Positions 1 through 10,534 of a stretch of 57,503 bases of DNA are shown piece after piece. The stretch covers positions 1 through 57,503 of the forward strand of contig CAZFQP010000005.1 in NCBI GenBank assembly GCA_964520505.1. Reading direction: 5' to 3'. The notes beneath the pieces are model-generated. The model was not told the DNA's origin. It saw only the letters and a program-made list of their open reading frames with translations, and ran no database searches. The position numbers and the translations under genes were made by a program. Positions within the stretch are counted from its first letter, which is position 1. Each line of letters starts with the position of its first letter. The stretch comes from an uncultured Candidatus Saccharibacteria bacterium. Its GTDB lineage: Bacteria; Patescibacteriota; Doudnabacteria; UBA920.

Positions 1-117
1 AGCAAAACCGAAGCCCTCGACATCCTAAAAACCGAACTAAAACCCGGTGACGTCGTCATAATAATGGCCGTAGGCTCCTTCAACCGCCTAGCCTATGAAC
101 TTAAGGAAGTAATATAA
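1..117 (+). CDS. 3' end of a Mur-ligase-like gene (partial, start outside window)
   Basis: Frame 1 is open from base 1 to TAA at 115-117 (SKTEALDILKTELKPGDVVIIMAVGSFNRLAYELKEVI). The GDxVxxMxxG tail resembles MurC/Mpl-type ligase C-termini. The fragment is short, so the call is weak. Confidence 0.35.
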   Translation, partial: SKTEALDILKTELKPGDVVIIMAVGSFNRLAYELKEVI

Positions 118-127
118 AAATAATTAT

Positions 128-751
128 ATGTTAGTTTTTATTGACGATTCCGGAGATGCCGGCTTTAAACTTGAAAAAGGTTCAACTAATTTTTTTATTA
201 TTGCTATGGTTGTGTTCGATGATGAGTTGGAAGCGGAAAAGGTTGCCGTCGCCATTAAAGAATTAAGAAGAAGTTTGGGCTGGGAAAATTATAGAGAGTT
301 CAGATTTTTTAAACTCTCAAGAGATATTAGACTAAAGTTTCTAAAAGCTATTTCACATTTTGATTTTCGAGTTAGGGCTTTGGTTGTTGAAAAAAAATTA
401 ATTCGAAGTGACGAACTTCGCAATAAAAAAGACAAATTTTACAGTTACTTTATTAAAGAAGCTTTAAAACACAATGGCGGAAAAATTTTAAATGCAAAAA
501 TAAAAATTGACGGCAGCGGTGATAGGATTTTTAGGAAAAGTTTTCTTGGATACTTGCGCAGAGAATTGAACAGTATTGATCATACAGTCATGAAGCATTG
601 CAAAATGGAAGATTCTAAAAATAATGTTTTAATTCAAATGGCGGATGTCGTTGCTGGTAGTATTCACCGTTATTATTCAGAAAAAAAGGACGCAAAAGAT
701 TATAAAATTTTAATAAAAAACCATATTGAGGATGAGTGGAAATTTGGATAA
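128..751 (+). CDS. DUF3800 family protein
   Basis: The N-terminus MLVFIDDSGD and the C-terminal LIQMADVVAGSI match the acidic-residue pattern of DUF3800 (RNase H-like fold) proteins. Confidence 0.7.
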   Translation: MLVFIDDSGDAGFKLEKGSTNFFIIAMVVFDDELEAEKVAVAIKELRRSLGWENYREFRFFKLSRDIRLKFLKAISHFDFRVRALVVEKKLIRSDELRNKKDKFYSYFIKEALKHNGGKILNAKIKIDGSGDRIFRKSFLGYLRRELNSIDHTVMKHCKMEDSKNNVLIQMADVVAGSIHRYYSEKKDAKDYKILIKNHIEDEWKFG

Positions 752-753
752 TA

Positions 754-779
754 AAAAAAAGCCCAATTAAGGGCTTTTT
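754..779 (+). terminator. Rho-independent terminator-like hairpin after the DUF3800 gene
   Basis: AAAAAGCCC-AATTAA-GGGCTTTTT lies directly after the stop codon. Confidence 0.55.
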
Positions 780-951
780 CCAACCACGTTCCTAGATTAG
801 TGTCCTAATCACGCCACCATACGGAGACAGTTCGGAGTACAGGTTTTTGTATGCCTATTATACCATATCCACTACCAAGTTGTCCACAAGGTACGAAAGT
901 GCTAAAATAAGCGGGTAATGGCTAATAAAATGCGTAATAAGAGTTTTACGT

Positions 952-1614
952 ATGCCTATAAAAAACATACACAAAATTGAACAACCCAGAGAGCGATTAA
1001 TTAAATACGGAGCGGGCAAGTTAAATAATCCCGATCTCCTGGCTATTTTATTGCATACCGGTCCAAAGGGGACAGGAGTAATGGAACTTGCGGCTAAAAT
1101 TTTTAAACAATTTCCGGAAAACAAACTGGCTAACGCGAGTTTTAAGGAACTAAAAAATATCCACGGCATTGGCCCGGCCAAGGCTTGTGAAATTGTGGCA
1201 ATGTTTGAACTTGGCCGTAGACTGCTTTTGGACAAGCCGGCGGCGTTAATTATTTCACCAAGGGAAGTTTGGGATCAGCTTAAAGATATTCGGACAAACA
1301 AAAAGGAACACTTTGTTGTGTTCTTTTTAAATACCCAAAACCAGGAAATTCAGCGAGAGCTTGTATCTGTTGGCACACTAAATGCTTCTTTAATCCACCC
1401 GCGCGAAGTGTTTGAACCGGCTATAAAACATTTAGCCGCGCACGTTATACTTGCCCACAACCACCCTTCCGGGAGCCTTGATCCTAGTAATGAAGATATC
1501 GCAGTCACCAAACGCCTGTCAGACGCCGGCCGTTTACTGGGAATTGAAGTGCTTGACCAAGTAATCGTCACTGCCAAAGGATACACAAGTTTTAAAGAAA
1601 AGAACTTGTTATAG
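952..1614 (+). CDS. radC: RadC-like JAB-domain protein (UPF0758)
   Basis: An N-terminal HhH-like region (PRERLIKYGAGKLNNPDLLAILL) is followed by the JAMM motif HNHPSGSLDPSNEDIAVTKRL. Confidence 0.85.
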   Translation: MPIKNIHKIEQPRERLIKYGAGKLNNPDLLAILLHTGPKGTGVMELAAKIFKQFPENKLANASFKELKNIHGIGPAKACEIVAMFELGRRLLLDKPAALIISPREVWDQLKDIRTNKKEHFVVFFLNTQNQEIQRELVSVGTLNASLIHPREVFEPAIKHLAAHVILAHNHPSGSLDPSNEDIAVTKRLSDAGRLLGIEVLDQVIVTAKGYTSFKEKNLL

Positions 1615-1623
1615 TTTTTTATT

Positions 1624-1682
1624 GTCATTGCGAGTACATCCGAAGCAATCTCTTATGTGTCATCCCGGACCCCGATCCGGGA
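1624..1682. repeat. GC-rich hairpin repeat cluster
   Basis: The 29-nt motif GTCATTGCGAGTACATCCGAAGCAATCTC (1624-1652) recurs with one mismatch at 33887-33915 inside murD. It is followed by the hairpin TCCCGGA-CCCCGA-TCCGGGA (1663-1682). Confidence 0.8.
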
Positions 1683-1752
1683 TCCAGATGATAGGCATGT
1701 TTTAATTCTGCGACATGTAACAGTCGGAGCGCTTTTCCGTCTATATTTAGCT

Positions 1753-2034
1753 ATGCGCAAAATCAAAAAAACAATTAAATTAAGACTCAATAGAATTTGC
1801 TCATGTTGCGGAAAGCCGCTCGCGGTAATTATATATACAGATAAATCTTACAGAGGCGGACACTATTTTGGAAAGATTCCAATTTCAACAGACAAAGAGT
1901 GGAAAAAGGCAATAAAGGCTGGCACCAAGCCATGGAATTTTCATGGTACTATTTTACAAGTAATGAAAAAAGACCCTGTGCCTTACAAGTTACTTGAGGA
2001 TTGGGAATGCTCTAAGTGTTATTGGAAAAGATAA
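1753..2034 (+). CDS. small Cys-rich (zinc-ribbon-like) protein
   Basis: The ORF-track entry 1657-2034 begins inside the repeat cluster. ATG at 1753 (MRKIKKTIK...) is the more plausible start. There are CxxC pairs at both ends (CSCC...; CSKC). Confidence 0.45.
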   Translation: MRKIKKTIKLRLNRICSCCGKPLAVIIYTDKSYRGGHYFGKIPISTDKEWKKAIKAGTKPWNFHGTILQVMKKDPVPYKLLEDWECSKCYWKR

Positions 2035-2059
2035 TGTCTTAAGTTATTACTTTATATAT

Positions 2060-2082
2060 ACCCGCCCAAACGCGGGTTTTGT
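2060..2082 (+). terminator. terminator-like hairpin
   Basis: ACCCGC-CCAAAC-GCGGGT is followed by TTTGTTG. Confidence 0.5.
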
Positions 2083-2088
2083 TGTATT

Positions 2089-2116
2089 TTGAGTGGAAAA
2101 AGAGTAAAATTATAAA
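2089..2116 (+). promoter_or_regulatory. candidate sigma70-type promoter for the hsd operon
   Basis: TTGAGT (2089-2094), 16-nt spacer, TATAAA (2111-2116), about 50 nt upstream of hsdM. Confidence 0.3.
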
Positions 2117-2166
2117 GTGAATATTAGCTCCTAAAGAGTGGGCTCCCAATTAAACATTAGTAATAA

Positions 2167-3747
2167 ATGCAAAATAATAAATCAAATTTAAACACAACTA
2201 AAGAACAAGAGCGAGCAGAGCTTCATAGGGCTATTTGGCAGATTGCCAATGACTTGAGGGGAAGCGTAGATGGTTGGGATTTTAAGCAATATGTGTTAGG
2301 AATACTTTTTTATCGTTTTATTAGCGAAAATCTTACTAACTATATTAATACTGACGAACATCGGTCGGGGAAAAAAGATTTTGATTACACTAAACTTTCA
2401 GACAAAGAAGCGGAGTTTGGTCGCGCTGACACTGTAAAAGAAAAGGGGTTTTATATTTTACCCAGCGAGTTATTTGTTAATGTTCGCAAAAATGCTCGCA
2501 ATGACGCGAACTTAAACGAAACACTTTCGAATATTTTTAGTAATATTGAAAACTCCGCGAAAGGCTCAAGCAGTGAAGACGACTTAAAAGGACTGTTTGA
2601 TGACTTAGATGTTAATTCGAATAAACTTGGTGCTAATGTTGAAAAAAGAAATCAAAGGTTAGTTAAACTCTTAGAAGCTATTGGCGATTTACGTCTTGGT
2701 GATTATGGAGATAATACAATTGATGCATTCGGCGATGCCTATGAGTTTCTTATGACTATGTATGCTTCCAATGCCGGCAAGTCCGGAGGAGAATTTTTTA
2801 CTCCTCAGGAAGTAAGTGAGCTCCTTGCAGAAATTACCACCGTTGGTAAAAAAGAAGTTAACAAAGTTTATGATCCTGCCTGTGGTTCAGGTTCTTTACT
2901 TCTTAAATTTTCCAAAGTTCTCGGTAAGGAAAATGTCCGGCAAGGTTTCTTCGGTCAGGAAATAAACCTTACTACATACAACCTTTGCCGTATTAATATG
3001 TTCCTGCACGATATTAATTATAATAATTTTGACATTGCTCACGGCGACACGCTTATTGACCCAAAACATTGGGACGACGAGCCGTTTGATGCCATAGTTT
3101 CTAATCCGCCATACTCCATTAAGTGGGAAGGCGATGCAAACCCACTTTTAATAAATGATCCTCGTTTTTCTCCTGCCGGAGTTCTTGCCCCAAAAAGCAA
3201 GGCCGATTTGGCATTTACTATGCATATGCTTTCCTGGCTTTCAACAAGCGGTACTGCGGCTATTGTTGAGTTTCCTGGCGTTCTTTACCGCGGGGGAGCT
3301 GAACAAAAAATTCGTAAATATTTAATTGATAACAACTATGTTGATGCGGTTATCCAATTACCGCCCGATCTTTTTTTTGGGACAACAATAGCAACTTGTG
3401 TTGTAATTTTAAAAAAGAGCAAAAAAGACAATAAAACTTTGTTTATTGATGCTTCGGCTGAGTTTGTGAGAGGTGGTAATAAAAATAAATTAAGTGAAGA
3501 AAACCGCAAAAAGATTCTCAATGCTTTTATTGAACGTAAAGATGTAGAATACTTTGTAAAAGTTGTAGATAACAAAGTAATTTCCGAAAACGACTACAAT
3601 ATAGCTGTTTCAAGCTATGTTACCGCAGAAGACACTCGCGAAATAGTAGACATAACCACCCTCAATGCAGAAATTACTAAGATAGTTGCAAGACAAAACG
3701 AACTTCGCACGGCGATTGATAAGATTGTGGCGAATATTGAAAATTAA
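2167..3747 (+). CDS. hsdM: type I restriction-modification system, methyltransferase subunit HsdM
   Basis: HsdM N-terminal domain (LWQIANDLRGSVDGWDFKQYVLGILFYRF), AdoMet motif YDPACGSGSLL and catalytic NPPYS motif (SNPPYSIKW). Confidence 0.95.
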   Translation: MQNNKSNLNTTKEQERAELHRAIWQIANDLRGSVDGWDFKQYVLGILFYRFISENLTNYINTDEHRSGKKDFDYTKLSDKEAEFGRADTVKEKGFYILPSELFVNVRKNARNDANLNETLSNIFSNIENSAKGSSSEDDLKGLFDDLDVNSNKLGANVEKRNQRLVKLLEAIGDLRLGDYGDNTIDAFGDAYEFLMTMYASNAGKSGGEFFTPQEVSELLAEITTVGKKEVNKVYDPACGSGSLLLKFSKVLGKENVRQGFFGQEINLTTYNLCRINMFLHDINYNNFDIAHGDTLIDPKHWDDEPFDAIVSNPPYSIKWEGDANPLLINDPRFSPAGVLAPKSKADLAFTMHMLSWLSTSGTAAIVEFPGVLYRGGAEQKIRKYLIDNNYVDAVIQLPPDLFFGTTIATCVVILKKSKKDNKTLFIDASAEFVRGGNKNKLSEENRKKILNAFIERKDVEYFVKVVDNKVISENDYNIAVSSYVTAEDTREIVDITTLNAEITKIVARQNELRTAIDKIVANIEN

Positions 3748-3760
3748 GTATAAGTATTAT

Positions 3761-4204
3761 ATGGAAAATGAAAATTTAAAACAGAACAACCATGGTCCAA
3801 ATAAAATTGCACATCTACAAATGATTCAAGGCGTAATTGACAGAATGGGCGGTAATTTATTTTATCTACGTGGGTGGTCAATTACTTTGCTCGCAGGTCT
3901 TTTTGCTTTTTCTACATCTGGAATTTTACCAGATGGTAAATGGTCAATTTTTCTATTAGTGATTTTATTATTTCTATTTTGGGTTTTGGATGGTTATTTC
4001 CTTTCTCTAGAACGATGTTTTAGAGATTTGTATGATAAAATACGAAAAACAAATGAGAACGAAATTGATTTTTCAATGAATATTAGTGAGTTTATAAAAT
4101 TACGAGACAGATCTCCATTACGAACCATGTTCAGACCAACATTATTTTGGTTTTACGGAATACTTTTAATTTCTATGTCAATAATTATGAAATTAACTTG
4201 GTAA
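3761..4204 (+). CDS. small multi-pass membrane protein (147 aa), unknown function
   Basis: ATG lies 13 nt after the hsdM stop. There are three hydrophobic segments (WSITLLAGLFAFSTSGIL, WSIFLLVILLFLFWVLDGYFL, TLFWFYGILLISMSIIMKL). The track ORF start at 3686 overlaps hsdM and is unlikely. Confidence 0.6.
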   Translation: MENENLKQNNHGPNKIAHLQMIQGVIDRMGGNLFYLRGWSITLLAGLFAFSTSGILPDGKWSIFLLVILLFLFWVLDGYFLSLERCFRDLYDKIRKTNENEIDFSMNISEFIKLRDRSPLRTMFRPTLFWFYGILLISMSIIMKLTW

Positions 4205-4208
4205 AAAT

Positions 4209-4901
4209 ATGGCAAAAATATTTATTAGCTATAAATATGGGGATAAATATGTGGGGCAGCATAATTCTTATAATCACACTGAGTGGTTACTCGATTCAGA
4301 AAATGGCAATTACTTAACAGCAAGAGATTATGTGACTTATTTAATGGAAAAAGTTTTAACAGACCATACAAATAAAGCAGAAAAAGATGATGAAGATCTT
4401 AGCTATCTTACTGAGGAAACGATACAGAAAAAATTATATGATAGAATCTACGATAGCACCGTAACTATAATTTTGCTTTCCAAAAATATGAAAGAATCCA
4501 AAGAGGAAAAATTGCAATGGATTCCGCGTGAAATTTCTTATTCTCTTAGAGAGAAAACAAAAGAAGATAGGACTAGTTATACAAATGGGATTTTAGTGGT
4601 GGCTTTGCCTGATGAAAAAGATAATTATGATCACGCAGTAATTAATAAAAATTGTGGGGTGAGAAGTTGGCAAACGGGATCATTTTTCAAAATCATTTAT
4701 AAAAATATGTTTAATAGGAAAGACAAAAAACAAACAATGTGCGATTCTTGTTTTAATTATCACCACAACGGAGATGATCACTCATACATTCATCCGGTTA
4801 AATGGGATGATTTTATAAAAGATCATAATAAATATATTAATTTTGTTTTAAATTTAAAGGAAAGACTTGATGAATTTGAATTGACTAAGATTCACGATTA
4901 A
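4209..4901 (+). CDS. ThsB-like TIR-domain (DUF1863-type) protein
   Basis: MAKIFISYKYGD, then STVTIILLSKNM, LQWIPREISYSL and GILVVALPD. This reproduces the strand pattern and conserved Glu of bacterial ThsB-type TIR domains. The C-terminal part is Cys/His-rich. Confidence 0.65.
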   Translation: MAKIFISYKYGDKYVGQHNSYNHTEWLLDSENGNYLTARDYVTYLMEKVLTDHTNKAEKDDEDLSYLTEETIQKKLYDRIYDSTVTIILLSKNMKESKEEKLQWIPREISYSLREKTKEDRTSYTNGILVVALPDEKDNYDHAVINKNCGVRSWQTGSFFKIIYKNMFNRKDKKQTMCDSCFNYHHNGDDHSYIHPVKWDDFIKDHNKYINFVLNLKERLDEFELTKIHD

Positions 4902-4902
4902 T

Positions 4903-6090
4903 ATGGCCAAACATACTAGTAAAATTGAAAAATTAATCGCTGAACTCTGTCCGAATGGGGTTGAGTTTAAAAAATTGGGTAAATTAGCAAGTATAGAAAC
5001 CGGAACCCAGCTAAATAAAACTACAATGGCAAAAACTGGCGATTATCCGGTTTTGAATGGTGGTATAAATCCATCTGGTTTTTATCATGAATTCAATACT
5101 GAAGAAAATACAATAGCAATAAGTCAAGGTGGCGCGTCGGCTGGTTATGTAAATTTTGTTACAACAAAATTTTGGGCAGGTGCACATTGTTTTGTCGTAA
5201 AACCCACAAATAACGAAGTTAATAACCGGTATTTATATTTTCTTTTAAAAAATGGGCAGGAAAAATTACAAAGCGCAAAATTAGGCGCAGGTATACCAGG
5301 ACTTAATAAAAAGGAATTACAAAATTTCAAAATTCCTCTGCCACCACTTGCAATTCAAGAAGAAATTGTAAAAATTCTTAATAATTTTACAGAACTAGAA
5401 GCAGAACTAGAAGCAGAACTAGAAGCAAGAAAGAAACAGTATGAGCATTATCGCTCTCAGCTTTTGACATTTAAGGAAGAGGGGGGGGTACAATGGGTTA
5501 GGCTTAATGATATTGGCACTTTAATCAGAGGAAATGGATTGCAAAAGAAAGATTTTGCTGAAGCTGGCGTTGGTTGCATTCACTATGGGCAAATTTACAC
5601 ATATTACGGAACATTTACTGATAAAACTAAATCATTTGTGTCACCTGAGTTGGCAAAAAAATTGAAAAAAGTACAAAAAGGAGATGTGATAATAACTAAC
5701 ACCAGTGAAAACTTAGAAGATGTTGGTAAAGCGGTTGTTTGGTGCGGAGATAATGAAATTGTAACGGGTGGACACGCAACAATTTTTAAACCAAAAAATA
5801 TTCTTGGAAAATATTTTGCTTATTACACACAAACTAAAATGTTTTTTGACGAGAAAAGAAAATATGCAAAAGGCACAAAAGTTATAGATGTTTCAGCAAG
5901 AGATATGGGTAAAATAAAAATTCCGCTTCCGCCAATTGATATGCAAGAACGAGTTGTGTCAATTCTTGATAAATTTGACGCATTGGTGAACGATATTTCA
6001 ATAGGTCTGCCGGCGGAGATTAAGGCGCGGAGGCAACAGTATGAATATTATAGAGGAAAACTTTTAACTTTTAAGGAATATGTCAAGTAA
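4903..6090 (+). CDS. hsdS: type I restriction-modification system, specificity subunit HsdS
   Basis: Two target-recognition halves are each followed by a conserved helix (LPPLAIQEEIVKIL...YEHYRSQLLTF and LPPIDMQERVVSIL...YEYYRGKLLTF). Confidence 0.9.
   Translation: MAKHTSKIEKLIAELCPNGVEFKKLGKLASIETGTQLNKTTMAKTGDYPVLNGGINPSGFYHEFNTEENTIAISQGGASAGYVNFVTTKFWAGAHCFVVKPTNNEVNNRYLYFLLKNGQEKLQSAKLGAGIPGLNKKELQNFKIPLPPLAIQEEIVKILNNFTELEAELEAELEARKKQYEHYRSQLLTFKEEGGVQWVRLNDIGTLIRGNGLQKKDFAEAGVGCIHYGQIYTYYGTFTDKTKSFVSPELAKKLKKVQKGDVIITNTSENLEDVGKAVVWCGDNEIVTGGHATIFKPKNILGKYFAYYTQTKMFFDEKRKYAKGTKVIDVSARDMGKIKIPLPPIDMQERVVSILDKFDALVNDISIGLPAEIKARRQQYEYYRGKLLTFKEYVK
5392..5427 (+). repeat. perfect 12-bp x3 tandem repeat (GAACTAGAAGCA) in the hsdS central spacer helix
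   Basis: Read directly from the sequence. It encodes ELEAELEAELEA. Confidence 0.95.
5481..5488 (+). repeat. G8 homopolymer tract inside hsdS
   Basis: gaG GGG GGG Gta encodes E-G-G-V, just after the central conserved region. Confidence 0.95.
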
Positions 6091-9000
6091 TTTTAAATAC
6101 AATTTAGTTTCGGAAAATCCGCAAAGTACTGTGGTGGGTGAGTATGTGGCGGAAACTGCGCGCGTGGCTTATTATCAAAGCGAGGCGGAGTTAGAAAGTG
6201 CGTTTATAAAACAACTTGAAACACAGGCATACGATTATTTAAAAATAACGTCGGAGGCTGACTTAATTTTAAATTTACGCAAGCAGTTAGAAAAGCTCAA
6301 CGGTTTTACTTTTACCAATATTGAATGGGACCATTTTTTTGTTAGTGAATTAGCAAATCCAAATCAGAGTATTGAAGAAAAAACCGCAACAATTCAAGAA
6401 GATCATATTAAAAACTTAACCCGCGACGACGGGTCGATTAAGAATATTTACCTGATTAAAAAAGATAATATTCACGACAATAGTTTGCAGGTAATTAATC
6501 AATACTCAACCGAAGACGGGCAGAGTTCTAATAGGTATGATGTAACTGTACTTGTAAATGGTTTGCCTCTTATTCATATTGAACTTAAACGCCGTGGAGT
6601 TGCCATTAAAGAAGCCTTTAATCAAATTAACCGCTACCAAAGGGAGAGTTTTTGGGCTTCGTCTGGGCTTTTTGAATATGTTCAGTTGTTCGTAATTTCT
6701 AACGGAACCCATACCAAGTATTACAGTAATACAACAAGGTTAGAACATATTAAAGAAGCAAACGAAGGCGCAGCGAAAAAAGGGAAAAGAACGAGTAATA
6801 GTTTTGAATTTACCAGTTGGTGGGCAGATGCGACTAATCGCCCAATAACTGACCTTATGGATTTTGCAAAAACTTTTTTTGCAAAGCATGTAATTTTAAA
6901 TATTTTAACCAAGTATTGTGTATTTACTACTGATCGTCTTTTGTTGGTTATGAGGCCGTATCAGATAGTGGCTACTGAAAGAATACTCAGCCGCATAGAA
7001 GTGAGTACAAATTATAAAAAACTTGGGACAACGGAAGCGGGTGGATATATTTGGCATACGACAGGATCCGGAAAAACTTTAACTAGTTTTAAAACCGCAC
7101 AATTGGTTAGTAAATTGCCTTATATCGAAAAGGTATTGTTTGTGGTTGACCGTAAAGATTTGGATTATCAGACAATGCGTGAATACGATAAGTTTGAAAA
7201 AGGCGCTGCAAATAGCAATACAAGTACCGCTATTCTTAAAAAACAATTAGAAAATCCAAATTCAAGAATAATTATTACCACAATTCAGAAATTGGATCGA
7301 TTTATTGGTCGCAATGTAGGGCATAATATTTTTGATGGCCATATAGTTATTATTTTTGACGAATGCCACCGTTCACAGTTTGGCGATATGCATGCGGCAA
7401 TTGCCAAAGCATTTAAGAACTACCACATTTTTGGGTTTACCGGCACTCCTATTTTTGCAATTAATGCTTCTTCTAGTGGTCGGCCAGACCTAAAAACAAC
7501 AGAGCAGGCATTTGGTAATAAGTTACATACATATACAATTGTTGATGCGATTGCAGATAAGAACGTCTTACCTTTTAAAGTGGATTATATTTCTACTGTT
7601 CATGAAGCTGAAAATATTGAAGATAAAAAAGTAAGCGATATTGATCGTGAGGCAATACTTGCCGCCCCAGAGCGTTTAGAGAATATTGTTCGTTATATTT
7701 GCGAACATTTTGACCAAAAAACTAAGCGCAATAGTTATTACAAGATAAAGGAAAGAAGGTTGGCCGGATTCAATTCAATTTTCGCTGTATCTTCTATTGA
7801 AATTGCAAAAAAGTATTACGCCGAGTTTAAAAAACAGCTTGCAGATCTACCAAGTGATAAACGACTGAAAGTCGCGACAATCTATAGTTTTGGAGTAAAT
7901 GATGAAGATGCAGATGGAATGATTGATGAAAACTCAGAAGACACCAGTGGATTGGATGTAAGTTCCAGAGATTTTCTTGAAAACGCTATTGCGGATTATA
8001 ACGTAATGTTTGGAACCTCATACGATACATCTTCCGATAAATTCCAAAATTACTACAAAGACGTTAGCCAGAGAGTAAAAGATAGAGAAATAGATATACT
8101 TATTGTGGTGAATATGTTTTTAACTGGATTTGATGCAACTACTCTAAACACTCTTTGGGTAGACAAGAATTTGCGTTTACATGGCCTTTTGCAGGCTTAT
8201 TCTCGAACTAATCGAATATTAAATAGTGTAAAGACTTTTGGTAATATTATTTGTTTCCGTAATTTAGAAAAGGCTACCAATGAAGCTATTGCTCTTTTTG
8301 GTGACAAAGAAGCAAGCGGCATTGTTCTTCTCAAAGCATACGCTGATTATTACCATGGGTACAAAGATGGGGATAAAGAAGTTCGGGGTTATGAGAGTTT
8401 TGTTAAAGAACTTCTCGAAAAATTCCCTGTTGGCCAAAGAATTTTGGGGGAACAAAACCAAAAGGACTTTATAAAATTGTATGGAGCTATTTTACGCCTC
8501 CGAAATATATTGGTAACTTTTGATGAATTCGCTGGAAATGAAATATTGACGGAAAGAGATGTACAGGATTATCACAGCATGTACATTGATATTTATAATG
8601 AATTTAGAAAGATTGCAGAAGAAGAGAAAGAGAATGTTAATGATGATGTTGTCTTTGAGATGGAGCTTATCAAACAAATTGAAATTAATATTGATTATGT
8701 ATTAAGTCTTGTTAAAAAATATCATGAAGACCATACTAAGAATCGTGAGCTTTTGATTGATATAAATAAGGCAATTGATTCAAGTGTTGAACTTAGAAAC
8801 AAGAAAGACCTTATTAATCAATTTATTACATCTTTAAATGTTAATTCTGTTGTCGATAAAGACTGGCAGAAGTTTGTGGAACAGAAGAAGGTTGAAGAAT
8901 TGGAAAAGATAATCGAAAACGAAAATCTTGATCGAGAAGCTACATATACATTTATAACCAATGCTTTCCGCGATGGCCGTGTGGCGACCACCGGCACAGC

Positions 9001-9136
9001 AATAACGAAGGTTCTGCCAGCCGTATCCCGCTTTTCTCCAACTGGTGAACGTACGCAGAAACGAGATAGTGTTATTGATAAATTGACAAAATTCTTTGAG
9101 AGATTTTTTGATATTTCTGGTGGAAAATTAAACTAA
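6080..9136 (+). CDS. hsdR: type I restriction enzyme, endonuclease/translocase subunit HsdR
   Basis: 1018 aa with a nuclease-type N-terminal domain, helicase motif I HTTGSGKTLT, motif II FDECHRSQ and a C-terminal helical domain. The start overlaps the hsdS end by 11 nt. Confidence 0.95.
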   Translation: MSSNFKYNLVSENPQSTVVGEYVAETARVAYYQSEAELESAFIKQLETQAYDYLKITSEADLILNLRKQLEKLNGFTFTNIEWDHFFVSELANPNQSIEEKTATIQEDHIKNLTRDDGSIKNIYLIKKDNIHDNSLQVINQYSTEDGQSSNRYDVTVLVNGLPLIHIELKRRGVAIKEAFNQINRYQRESFWASSGLFEYVQLFVISNGTHTKYYSNTTRLEHIKEANEGAAKKGKRTSNSFEFTSWWADATNRPITDLMDFAKTFFAKHVILNILTKYCVFTTDRLLLVMRPYQIVATERILSRIEVSTNYKKLGTTEAGGYIWHTTGSGKTLTSFKTAQLVSKLPYIEKVLFVVDRKDLDYQTMREYDKFEKGAANSNTSTAILKKQLENPNSRIIITTIQKLDRFIGRNVGHNIFDGHIVIIFDECHRSQFGDMHAAIAKAFKNYHIFGFTGTPIFAINASSSGRPDLKTTEQAFGNKLHTYTIVDAIADKNVLPFKVDYISTVHEAENIEDKKVSDIDREAILAAPERLENIVRYICEHFDQKTKRNSYYKIKERRLAGFNSIFAVSSIEIAKKYYAEFKKQLADLPSDKRLKVATIYSFGVNDEDADGMIDENSEDTSGLDVSSRDFLENAIADYNVMFGTSYDTSSDKFQNYYKDVSQRVKDREIDILIVVNMFLTGFDATTLNTLWVDKNLRLHGLLQAYSRTNRILNSVKTFGNIICFRNLEKATNEAIALFGDKEASGIVLLKAYADYYHGYKDGDKEVRGYESFVKELLEKFPVGQRILGEQNQKDFIKLYGAILRLRNILVTFDEFAGNEILTERDVQDYHSMYIDIYNEFRKIAEEEKENVNDDVVFEMELIKQIEINIDYVLSLVKKYHEDHTKNRELLIDINKAIDSSVELRNKKDLINQFITSLNVNSVVDKDWQKFVEQKKVEELEKIIENENLDREATYTFITNAFRDGRVATTGTAITKVLPAVSRFSPTGERTQKRDSVIDKLTKFFERFFDISGGKLN

Positions 9137-9161: not shown

Positions 9162-9557
9162 ATGAAAAAACTTAGTGTAATTCCCGAAGATAAAGTTATT
9201 GAGGCTGTTTTGGGGTGGGCTTATAAACAGGGTTGGGGCCTGAGGCCAAAAATTAAACATGGTCACAAGCAGGGGGTGGACTTGGAATTAACCAACGAAA
9301 AAACTAAGCACAAGTATTTTATTGAATGTAAAGGTGGGCCTCATGACGAGGTAAATTTTGTTTATTCTTTGGGGCAAATAATCACCCGAATGAACCGCAT
9401 TCCAAAAGGTGTAAATTATGGTATTGCCTTGCCAACCAAATCTGCTGAAATAGCCAGACGAAGAATTCCAAAAGGCTTTGCAACCAGAAATAAATTAACC
9501 ATATTTTCAGTATCGAATTCTGGGGTTGTGAAAAGATTTGTGCCAACTGAATTTTAA
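9162..9557 (+). CDS. small PD-(D/E)XK-like (restriction-endonuclease-fold) protein, hypothetical
   Basis: GVDLEL...KYFIECKG fits a D...E-x-K nuclease motif. It lies 25 nt downstream of hsdR. Confidence 0.4.
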   Translation: MKKLSVIPEDKVIEAVLGWAYKQGWGLRPKIKHGHKQGVDLELTNEKTKHKYFIECKGGPHDEVNFVYSLGQIITRMNRIPKGVNYGIALPTKSAEIARRRIPKGFATRNKLTIFSVSNSGVVKRFVPTEF

Positions 9558-9594: not shown

Positions 9595-9987
9595 ATGTTT
9601 AATTTTCTTTTTCATATGGATTCTCACGAACAAAGATTAGAGGAATATATTCAAAAACCTGAGAAAGATTTGCTCAGAGTTATTGAGTATGAGCAAGTCT
9701 CTCCAAATGTTGATTTTGCAAAATCCGTTTTACAGGTCAAGTTACAGCAAAGTATCTCCGCGCTTAATAAAACCGTTGAAGCAAGCACTAAGGAGACCGA
9801 AAAACAAAACAGTGTAATGATAAATTTGACCATGGTTTTATTTTTTGTGGCTGTGTTGCAAATTATTGTACCTATTTGGATGAGCAATCTAGCTCAATGG
9901 CCCAAAGCAGGAATAAGCATCGTTACTATTTTAATAATAGCTTGGGCTTTTTGGTATATCTTTAAAGAACAAAAGATTAAAAAATAA
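9595..9987 (+). CDS. hypothetical protein with two C-terminal TM helices
   Basis: A helical N-terminal half is followed by the hydrophobic segments INLTMVLFFVAVLQIIVPIWM and ISIVTILIIAWAFWYIF. Confidence 0.5.
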   Translation: MFNFLFHMDSHEQRLEEYIQKPEKDLLRVIEYEQVSPNVDFAKSVLQVKLQQSISALNKTVEASTKETEKQNSVMINLTMVLFFVAVLQIIVPIWMSNLAQWPKAGISIVTILIIAWAFWYIFKEQKIKK

Positions 9988-10021
9988 TTACATATTTAAT
10001 TACTTGATTTCAACAAATTTT

Positions 10022-10534
10022 ATGTCTAAAATCATTTGGATTGTAGTAATAATGTTGGTTGTAATAGCAATTAAGTATGTAGCTGAAACATATTTTAAAG
10101 AGGGTAAAAGTACGTTAGATTTTTCGGTTTACGAGCGAAAGACTTATTTGTTTGATGCCGCTTCGGAATTTAACTTGTTTAAAGTTCTTGTTCAATTATT
10201 TGGCGATAAATATTATATCTTTCCCCAGGTAAATTATAGCCATTTAATCCAACCCAAAAAAACTACTTGGGCAGAAGAAAAAAAGTACAGAAGTCGCATA
10301 GACAGAAAATCGGCAGATTTTGTTTTATGCGATAAAGACCGCGTTGTGCCCCAGCTTATTATTGAGTTAGACGGGAGTGTGCATAATTTTAAGAGTAAGC
10401 AGGCGAGAGACGAATTTATAAATGCAATTACAAATATCGTAAACCTTCCCTTATTGCACATTAAAACCGGAATTATGGATAAAGAATACATTCGCGCCAC
10501 TATCACCGAAAAATTAAACCAATCAAAAACTTAA
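10022..10534 (+). CDS. membrane-anchored DUF2726-like (nuclease-fold) protein
   Basis: An N-terminal TM (IIWIVVIMLVVIAIKYV) is followed by YYIFPQVNYSHL, SADFVLCD and IIELDGSVH, typical of DUF2726. ATG at 10022 is preferred over the TTG at 10004 in the track. Confidence 0.6.
   Translation: MSKIIWIVVIMLVVIAIKYVAETYFKEGKSTLDFSVYERKTYLFDAASEFNLFKVLVQLFGDKYYIFPQVNYSHLIQPKKTTWAEEKKYRSRIDRKSADFVLCDKDRVVPQLIIELDGSVHNFKSKQARDEFINAITNIVNLPLLHIKTGIMDKEYIRATITEKLNQSKT

Follow-up and report, generated by a model that had tools for sequence, protein, structure and literature searches.

Related systems

Thoeris types V to XI were described in December 2025 (Yirmiya et al., bioRxiv 10.64898/2025.12.03.692087). 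Type V consists of ThsB and ThsF, the latter a protein with three transmembrane (TM) helices annotated as DUF2270. The type V system of Bacillus thuringiensis DAR 81934 protects B. subtilis, and type V ThsB alone accumulates 3' cyclic ADP-ribose (3'cADPR) upon infection. Added 3'cADPR is toxic only in cells carrying type V, defence is blocked by the 3'cADPR sponge Tad1, and in an AlphaFold 3 (AF3) model seven copies of ThsF assemble into a ring whose inter-protomer pockets are positively charged (all bioRxiv 10.64898/2025.12.03.692087). The locus analyzed here likewise contains two genes, for a TIR protein and an effector of ~140 aa with three TM helices. It occupies positions 3761-4901 of a 57,503-nucleotide stretch of DNA (contig CAZFQP010000005.1), called the window as a whole, and is inserted at the junction between hsdM and hsdS of a type I restriction-modification (R-M) operon. 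It is assigned, with a probability of roughly 85%, as a type V Thoeris abortive-infection system in the order thsF-thsB; its role in defence is putative and argued from characterized homologues.

Two other described systems offer points of comparison. PDC-M50 is a cassette (CAS_00164, FAM_00415>>FAM_00416; 57 instances) from a set of "guilt-by-embedding" candidates, identified by their location inside BREX, DISARM, and type I R-M systems; it was listed as a candidate without an assay or an assigned mechanism (Payne et al., bioRxiv 10.1101/2024.01.29.577857). The EcoprrI (prr) locus resembles the window in carrying an abortive-infection module, PrrC, among type I hsd genes. PrrC, an anticodon nuclease with an ABC-ATPase-like N-domain, is under the control of the R-M enzyme. 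It has no sequence relationship to the window pair, and neither window protein contains an anticodon nuclease or ABC-ATPase-like domain according to Pfam, NCBIfam, and PADLOC.

The membrane protein is a ThsF homologue

The two genes of the cassette are as follows.

3761-4204, plus strand: thsF, 147 aa; three-TM protein of the PADLOC PDC-M50A family, putative membrane effector in a type V Thoeris system
4209-4901, plus strand: thsB, 230 aa; TIR protein of the long ThsB1 subfamily, putatively sensing infection and synthesizing the signal; TIR core followed by a Cys/His-rich C-terminal domain

The link to the validated system comes from the neighbor of its TIR gene. Protein P0390 is 100% identical to the ThsB of B. 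thuringiensis DAR 81934 in Table S1 of Yirmiya et al., and the gene 3' of it on the contig (L087:3773-4198) encodes a 141-aa protein that matches PADLOC PDC-M50A (1.8e-48). The window membrane protein shares 43% identity with it (BLASTP 6e-34; hhalign 99.9%, E 1.4e-32) and is identified as ThsF because of this identity to the partner of a validated ThsB. All four PADLOC PDC-M50A models match the window protein (best PDLC04686, 3.7e-41). Homologues of B. thuringiensis ThsB also adjoin homologues of the window ThsF on plasmids, including Terribacillus pT1 and a Klebsiella plasmid; the Terribacillus pT1 membrane protein aligned with the family profile at 99.9% hhalign probability (E 9e-31). A collection of 5.8 billion proteins contained 391 relatives of the membrane protein, none of them Pfam-annotated and many from Patescibacteria, and 574 relatives of the TIR protein. 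With hundreds of relatives for each, both open reading frames (ORFs) are judged to be genuine genes. A search with a family profile, cut off at E ≤ 1e-3, retrieved 4788 cluster representatives (clustering at 50% identity).

Neither Pfam nor NCBIfam gave a usable match to the 147-aa protein, and Pfam returned no match to DUF2270 (PF10028) at E ≤ 0.1. Among 150 family representatives, weak DUF2270 matches were found in 18 (best 1.4e-5), while 41 touched DUF3278 and 9 touched 8xMP; ten divergent relatives gave only sub-threshold Pfam matches to these same three families. B. thuringiensis ThsF is likewise without a Pfam match on record, so the "DUF2270" label of the type V paper is a remote, profile-level annotation of higher sensitivity and not a practical criterion for family membership.

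The AlphaFold 2 (AF2) monomer model of ThsF places helices at residues 13-52, 59-96, and 126-146. Hydropathy is strong for TM2 and TM3 and weaker for TM1, and the loop at 82-125 holds 10 Lys and Arg residues. Taken together, the helices and the hydropathy describe an N-terminal helix continuing into TM1, followed by TM2 and TM3, giving the three membrane-spanning helices of a type V effector. A Foldseek search of the model against the PDB returned nothing below E = 1, which says nothing either way for so small a helical protein. The residues conserved across the family (K15, H18, Q23, R28, G38, W39, F73, W74, D77, E84, R88, and Y91) are all present in the window protein. One conserved cluster lies in the N-terminal amphipathic helix (K15, H18, Q23, and R28) and a second spans the end of TM2 and the cytoplasmic helix after it (F73, W74, D77, E84, R88, and Y91). 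The conserved basic residues K15, H18, R28, and R88 would be compatible with the positively charged inter-protomer pockets modeled for type V ThsF.

Several alternative descriptions of this gene were discarded. A longer ORF from a TTG at 3686 was rejected since homologues align from the ATG at 3761, and the apparently conserved N-terminal extension in P0018 and P0049 is most likely an out-of-frame reading of the 3' end of hsdM. On the strength of the direct 43% identity to ThsF and the lack of a SLATT match, both the SLATT effector of type VII and the "3TM" class of Table S1 (Yirmiya et al.) were rejected.

The module also occurs in fusions. P0315 (378 aa) joins a ThsF-like TM module (residues ~242-376) to an N-terminal SLOG domain (LD_cluster2, 1.7e-15), a single-chain sensor-effector version of the module. 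P0268 (362 aa) has the TM module at residues ~225-354, preceded by a domain without a Pfam match.

The TIR protein is a two-domain ThsB

The 230-aa protein scores 22.9 bits against Pfam ThsB_TIR, just over the 21.2 required by its gathering threshold, and the PADLOC ThsB1 model PDLC00428 covers residues 2-227 (1.7e-61); within PADLOC the only matches are to the ThsB1 models PDLC00428 and PDLC00438. The top PDB match, over the full length, is 9VYL ("Crystal structure of BdThsB1 with NAD"; B. dafuensis) with a phmmer value of 1.1e-40. The AF2 model is of good quality (predicted local distance difference test score [pLDDT] 89.4; predicted TM-score 0.87) and superimposes on 9VYL with a Foldseek E of 1.9e-20, TM-scores of 0.80/0.82, and 40% identity. 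These full-length phmmer and Foldseek matches place the protein, with its two domains, in the TIR1/ThsB1 subfamily of B. dafuensis ThsB. A full-text search found no paper naming 9VYL or PDC-M50, the latter occurring only in a supplementary table.

In a profile search against PDB sequences, E108 (in WIPREI) aligned with the Glu of the WVRYEI motif, E85, in B. cereus ThsB (6LHY), and the E85Q substitution in that protein abolishes signal production. Only F5, S7, and E108 are invariant in an alignment of 47 sequences that includes divergent short TIRs. In the C-terminal domain (residues ~149-191), C149, C178, C181, H185, H186, and H191 are nearly invariant. This Cys/His set suggests a metal-binding site, and the domain perhaps takes part in phage sensing.

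The same two-domain ThsB subfamily is found in the type I Thoeris system of B. dafuensis, which comprises ThsA (SIR2-SLOG), TIR1/ThsB1, and TIR2. TIR1 determines the phage specificity of that system, and on infection it makes a cyclic ADP-ribose (cADPR) isomer that activates ThsA (Ofir et al.). The window ThsB, as a member of the BdThsB1 subfamily, probably makes a signal of the same class. A connection to type V is provided by TIR cluster 2742576382, whose members are labeled "DUF2270 - Type V" in Table S1 of Yirmiya et al.; one contains WIPREISYSL, and they are 50-57% identical to TIRs located 3' of ThsF in the related loci described below. BLAST with three experimentally tested type V TIRs gave only weak matches to the 80 loci of that set. 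A 53%-identical homologue of the B. thuringiensis type V ThsB was also seen on a B. cereus plasmid (NZ_CP053657.2, 1285-5726), in a cluster that also includes a SIR2 gene and two more TIR genes; ~780 nt downstream are unannotated.

The pair lies within a type I R-M operon

The host operon and the element that precedes it are listed below.

2060-2077, plus strand: terminator-like hairpin upstream of hsdM, 5 of its 6 base pairs G-C, with a T-run after it; consensus scan only
2167-3747, plus strand: hsdM, type I R-M methyltransferase; Pfam N6_Mtase 1.1e-114 and HsdM_N 1.8e-19, PADLOC MTase_I 2.4e-131
4903-6090, plus strand: hsdS, type I specificity subunit; Pfam Methylase_S 1.3e-50 in two stretches, PADLOC Specificity_I 5.4e-124
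6080-9136, plus strand: hsdR, type I restriction subunit; Pfam HSDR_N, SWI2_SNF2, T1R_D3-like, and EcoR124_C, PADLOC REase_I 1167 bits

In the ORF map, hsdM is the first gene of the operon bearing the cassette. The gaps from hsdM through thsF and thsB to hsdS are 13, 4, and 1 nt, so that hsdS starts 1 nt past the thsB stop codon, and hsdR overlaps the end of hsdS by 11 nt. The hairpin at 2060-2077 probably ends the transcription unit preceding hsdM. The consensus scan found no comparable hairpin at any gene junction from hsdM to hsdR; the remaining plus-strand matches within 2167-9136 have weak stems (3 G-C pairs) and all fall in coding sequence. The tight spacing fits one transcript from hsdM to hsdR, and thsF and thsB are most likely co-transcribed with the hsd genes. 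A sequence-only reading of this DNA had already described the five genes as looking like a single transcript with the pair nested in a type I R-M operon. Its coordinates, gaps, and quoted peptide strings are all present in the sequence, Pfam and PADLOC confirm the identities of hsdM, hsdS, and hsdR, and the spacing is compatible with the proposed transcript.

Pairing and genomic context across related loci

A scan of 185,579 species genomes yielded at least 546 loci encoding the ThsF family, of which the best 80 were fetched. These 80 are mostly from Patescibacteria, with others from Gammaproteobacteria, Acidobacteriota, Neobacillus, Aquincola, Electronema, and further groups. In 69 of the 77 loci having a downstream gene, the gene 3' of ThsF belongs to one BLAST-linked cluster with the window TIR, and in three more (L068, L076, and L078) it appears TIR-like by eye only; the downstream gene is thus a TIR in ~90% of related loci. 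In these loci the two genes occur together both with and without flanking hsd genes. Genes of hsd type stand on both sides of the pair in 7 of 37 well-flanked loci (~19%) and adjoin it in 13 of 80, while ~80% of the well-flanked loci have no adjacent hsd genes. Embedding is therefore frequent, not obligatory. This differs from PrrC, which is almost always embedded.

Two unrelated hsd families carry the cassette at the same hsdM-hsdS junction: hsdM is 82-85% identical to that of the window in L003, L005, and L008, and 31-36% identical in L012, L015-L017, L019, L027, L031, and L041. The closest comparison is with L003, from an Uhrbacteria metagenome-assembled genome (MAG; 54-6654, aligned with 2167-9136 of the window), where hsdM, hsdR, and ThsF are 85, 84, and 63% identical, respectively, to their window counterparts. 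ThsB and hsdS are only 36 and 38% identical, which suggests that the sensor TIR, like hsdS, was exchanged while the rest of the operon was conserved.

Other loci show variations on the pair. A second, short ThsB precedes thsF in L017:2444-2935, L015:6013-6507, L012:7586-8002, L041:7444-8007, L004:7485-7994, and L026:116-628. These loci are mostly hsd-embedded, and the short proteins match Pfam ThsB_TIR (1e-19 to 1e-27) and PADLOC PDC-M50B. The resulting order is hsdM-thsB(short)-thsF-thsB(long)-hsdS-hsdR; the window lacks the second sensor, and L041 has the short ThsB and thsF only. Outside hsd operons, the two nearest genome loci are L001 and L002. In both, a type II DNA methylase gene stands directly 5' of thsF, an N6_N4_Mtase (L001:5702-7996; 5.8e-46) in the former and an EcoRI methylase (L002:6827-7996; 6.7e-140) in the latter. 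The pair may thus associate with R-M beyond type I. In place of the usual ThsB, the gene 3' of the ThsF homologue encodes a 334-339-aa protein in L076:8484-9488 and L078:4778-5797 (Neobacillus) and a 689-aa protein in L073:8442-10511 (Candidatus Electronema). The N termini of these proteins resemble TIR or nucleoside 2-deoxyribosyltransferases, and they may represent further sensor variants.

Comparison with described defense systems

The window locus shares with type V Thoeris an effector homologous to a validated ThsF and an adjacent same-strand ThsB, 4 nt from thsF, with an intact catalytic Glu; the Pfam DUF2270 annotation is missing. TIRs of the window subfamily are listed as type V in Table S1 (Yirmiya et al.), and the DefenseFinder Thoeris_V model accepts ThsF with one or several ThsB genes after it. 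There are also differences. The gene order is thsF-thsB in the window and thsB-thsF in B. thuringiensis, the window ThsB is of the long ThsB1-like subfamily and not that of the B. thuringiensis system, and the window pair is hsd-embedded, probably in a Patescibacterium, and known here by its sequence, unlike the validated B. thuringiensis system.

PDC-M50 resembles the window in the presence of an M50A protein and in its R-M-embedded context. Its second component, PDC-M50B, is a short, 162-aa ThsB (PDLC04688) that is matched by the short (~162-aa) TIRs of related loci, whereas the TIR of the window is a long ThsB1 and does not match it. Because the short TIRs of the ThsF-linked cluster are PDC-M50B, PDC-M50 corresponds to the short-ThsB form of type V Thoeris, and the window to a long-ThsB variant that the PADLOC PDC-M50 rule may therefore miss.

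Type I Thoeris has ThsA, whereas thsB in the window is accompanied by thsF and hsd genes, with no SIR2 or SLOG domain among the genes scanned in the first 12 kb. The window effector is a membrane protein and would be expected to disrupt the membrane, not to deplete NAD+ as in type I. The type II effector combines TM helices with a Macro domain, and no Macro match to the 147-aa protein was returned by Pfam, NCBIfam, or PADLOC; the protein is homologous to ThsF instead.

Measured against these systems, the sequence-only reading fared unevenly. Its TIR assignment agrees with the ThsB1 model match (1.7e-61), the 9VYL fold match, and the alignment of E108 with B. cereus ThsB E85, and its pairing of a small three-TM effector with the TIR agrees with the ThsF homology, the AF2 helices, and hydropathy, an effector role being likely. 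It had argued that the signaling or effector logic would differ from described Thoeris types; for types I and II this holds, as no ThsA (SIR2-SLOG or TM-Macro) was found among the genes scanned in the first 12 kb, and that logic has since been described. Its statement that SIR2, SLOG, and Macro domains are absent from the entire window stands for the genes scanned in the first 12 kb, where none was found, the remainder lying outside the scan. The argument that the membrane protein is too small for a known nucleotide-sensor domain is answered by the AF3 models of the type V paper, which put the positively charged pockets between ring protomers. The implied novelty is not supported: the pair matches a catalogued subtype, type V Thoeris and, earlier, PADLOC PDC-M50, and is a further example of a described system, not a new kind.

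Proposed mechanism and alternative explanations

The sequences themselves show which family each protein belongs to, the presence of the catalytic Glu, the conserved pairing, and the recurrent hsd embedding. Defense activity, signal identity, oligomerization, and membrane disruption are carried over from the literature on homologues, and on that basis the following model is proposed. ThsB (catalytic Glu108) would sense a phage cue, probably involving its Cys/His-rich C-terminal domain, and would convert NAD+ to a cyclic ADP-ribose isomer, most likely 3'cADPR. The three-TM ThsF would form a homo-oligomeric ring and bind the signal at its cytoplasmic face, formed by the amphipathic helix at the N terminus together with the one that follows TM2 (conserved K15, H18, R28, R88, and Y91). 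Binding would then open or disrupt the membrane, and phage replication would stop. The R-M enzyme would provide first-line restriction, with Thoeris as a second layer on the same transcript.

Several points weigh against this assignment. Co-transcription with the hsd genes is read from gene spacing, and the support for this locus, as for all the Patescibacterial homologues, comes from sequence homologues. The effector escapes the Pfam family under which type V effectors are annotated, and its monomer model is of moderate confidence (pLDDT 69.9) and matched no PDB fold. Among described type V systems, that of Bacillus sp. 1NLA3E was not triggered to toxicity by 3'cADPR, and that of Vibrio cholerae gave no defense in Escherichia coli (bioRxiv 10.64898/2025.12.03.692087). 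Finally, the 3'cADPR signal is an extrapolation, since the window ThsB and the validated B. thuringiensis ThsB belong to separate TIR clusters.

This last point leaves some room for a type V architecture that uses another signal, such as 2'cADPR, canonical cADPR, or an undescribed ADP-ribose derivative. That possibility gains from the one type V system unresponsive to 3'cADPR and from several TIR types that made other isomers or unknown molecules (bioRxiv 10.64898/2025.12.03.692087), in addition to the cluster membership of the window ThsB. It is nonetheless unlikely, given that the closest characterized TIR, B. dafuensis TIR1/ThsB1, makes the ThsA-activating isomer, 3'cADPR, and that the window ThsF is 43% identical to a ThsF activated by 3'cADPR. 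The pathway might also run in reverse, with the TIR as a toxic NAD+-depleting effector and the membrane protein as a sensor, anchor, or regulator, for NADase effectors are common among bacterial TIRs and Yirmiya et al. (bioRxiv 10.64898/2025.12.03.692087) list this possibility as a caveat for unverified configurations. The same study verified the type V configuration, in which ThsB alone makes 3'cADPR on infection and the added molecule harms only cells that have the system. Since a SLOG sensor is fused to the ThsF-like module in P0315, the TM module is marked as the output, and a reversed pathway is hardly credible.

The position of the pair invites a different interpretation, a guard resembling PrrC, in which ThsB or ThsF is held inactive by, or monitors, HsdM, HsdS, and HsdR and fires when a phage anti-restriction protein disables the enzyme, as PrrC does in the EcoprrI locus. 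Use of the same hsdM-hsdS junction in two unrelated hsd families, the embedding of 7 of the 37 well-flanked loci, and the placement of the pair after type II methylase genes in L001 and L002 would all suit such a guard, as would the nearly exclusive occurrence of PrrC in type I R-M loci (Payne et al., 10.1101/2024.01.29.577857). However, ~80% of well-flanked loci have no neighboring hsd genes, homologous pairs stand alone on plasmids, and validated type V defends B. subtilis as a two-gene operon with no R-M partner (bioRxiv 10.64898/2025.12.03.692087). Embedding is moreover a general habit of many autonomous defense systems (Payne et al., 10.1101/2024.01.29.577857), which makes the guard very improbable. 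A more speculative extension treats the hsdM-hsdS junction as a docking site that functionally couples Thoeris to type I restriction, with the sensor swapped to retune the coupling; ThsB could, for example, sense products or states made by Hsd or anti-restriction proteins aimed at it. L003 would fit, with hsdM and hsdR 85 and 84% identical to those of the window yet ThsB only 36%, and this proposal is rated as quite improbable. A type V Thoeris system, probably signaling by 3'cADPR, remains the preferred reading.

Surroundings of the operon

Upstream of the operon are a DUF3800 gene (128-751; 4.9e-15) and a RadC-like JAB gene (952-1614; 7.8e-42). On the 3' side of hsdR lie genes for a 131-aa protein with a weak NOV_C-like match (9162-9557), a 130-aa membrane protein (9595-9987), and a DUF2726 protein (10004-10534; 6.6e-23). 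The hsd/Thoeris operon is thus flanked by genes typical of defense or mobile islands. Across the whole window, 51 of 52 non-overlapping ORFs (≥90 aa) lie on the plus strand, and the G+C content is 40%. The nearest homologues of both Thoeris proteins are from Patescibacteria MAGs (Yonathbacteria, Uhrbacteria, Moranbacteria, and Pacebacteria).

Implications

These results very probably place type V Thoeris in a genome of the Patescibacteria (Candidate Phyla Radiation). The ThsF family is large and paired with several ThsB subfamilies, and the pair occurs repeatedly at the hsdM-hsdS junction of unrelated type I R-M operons, with apparent swapping of the sensor. For annotation, such pairs should be recorded as Thoeris V (ThsF/ThsB) and not as a hypothetical protein plus a TIR, and the PADLOC rule PDC-M50, built on M50A and a short M50B, may overlook long ThsB1-type variants. 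The mechanistic questions raised by this locus are those already posed for type V Thoeris.

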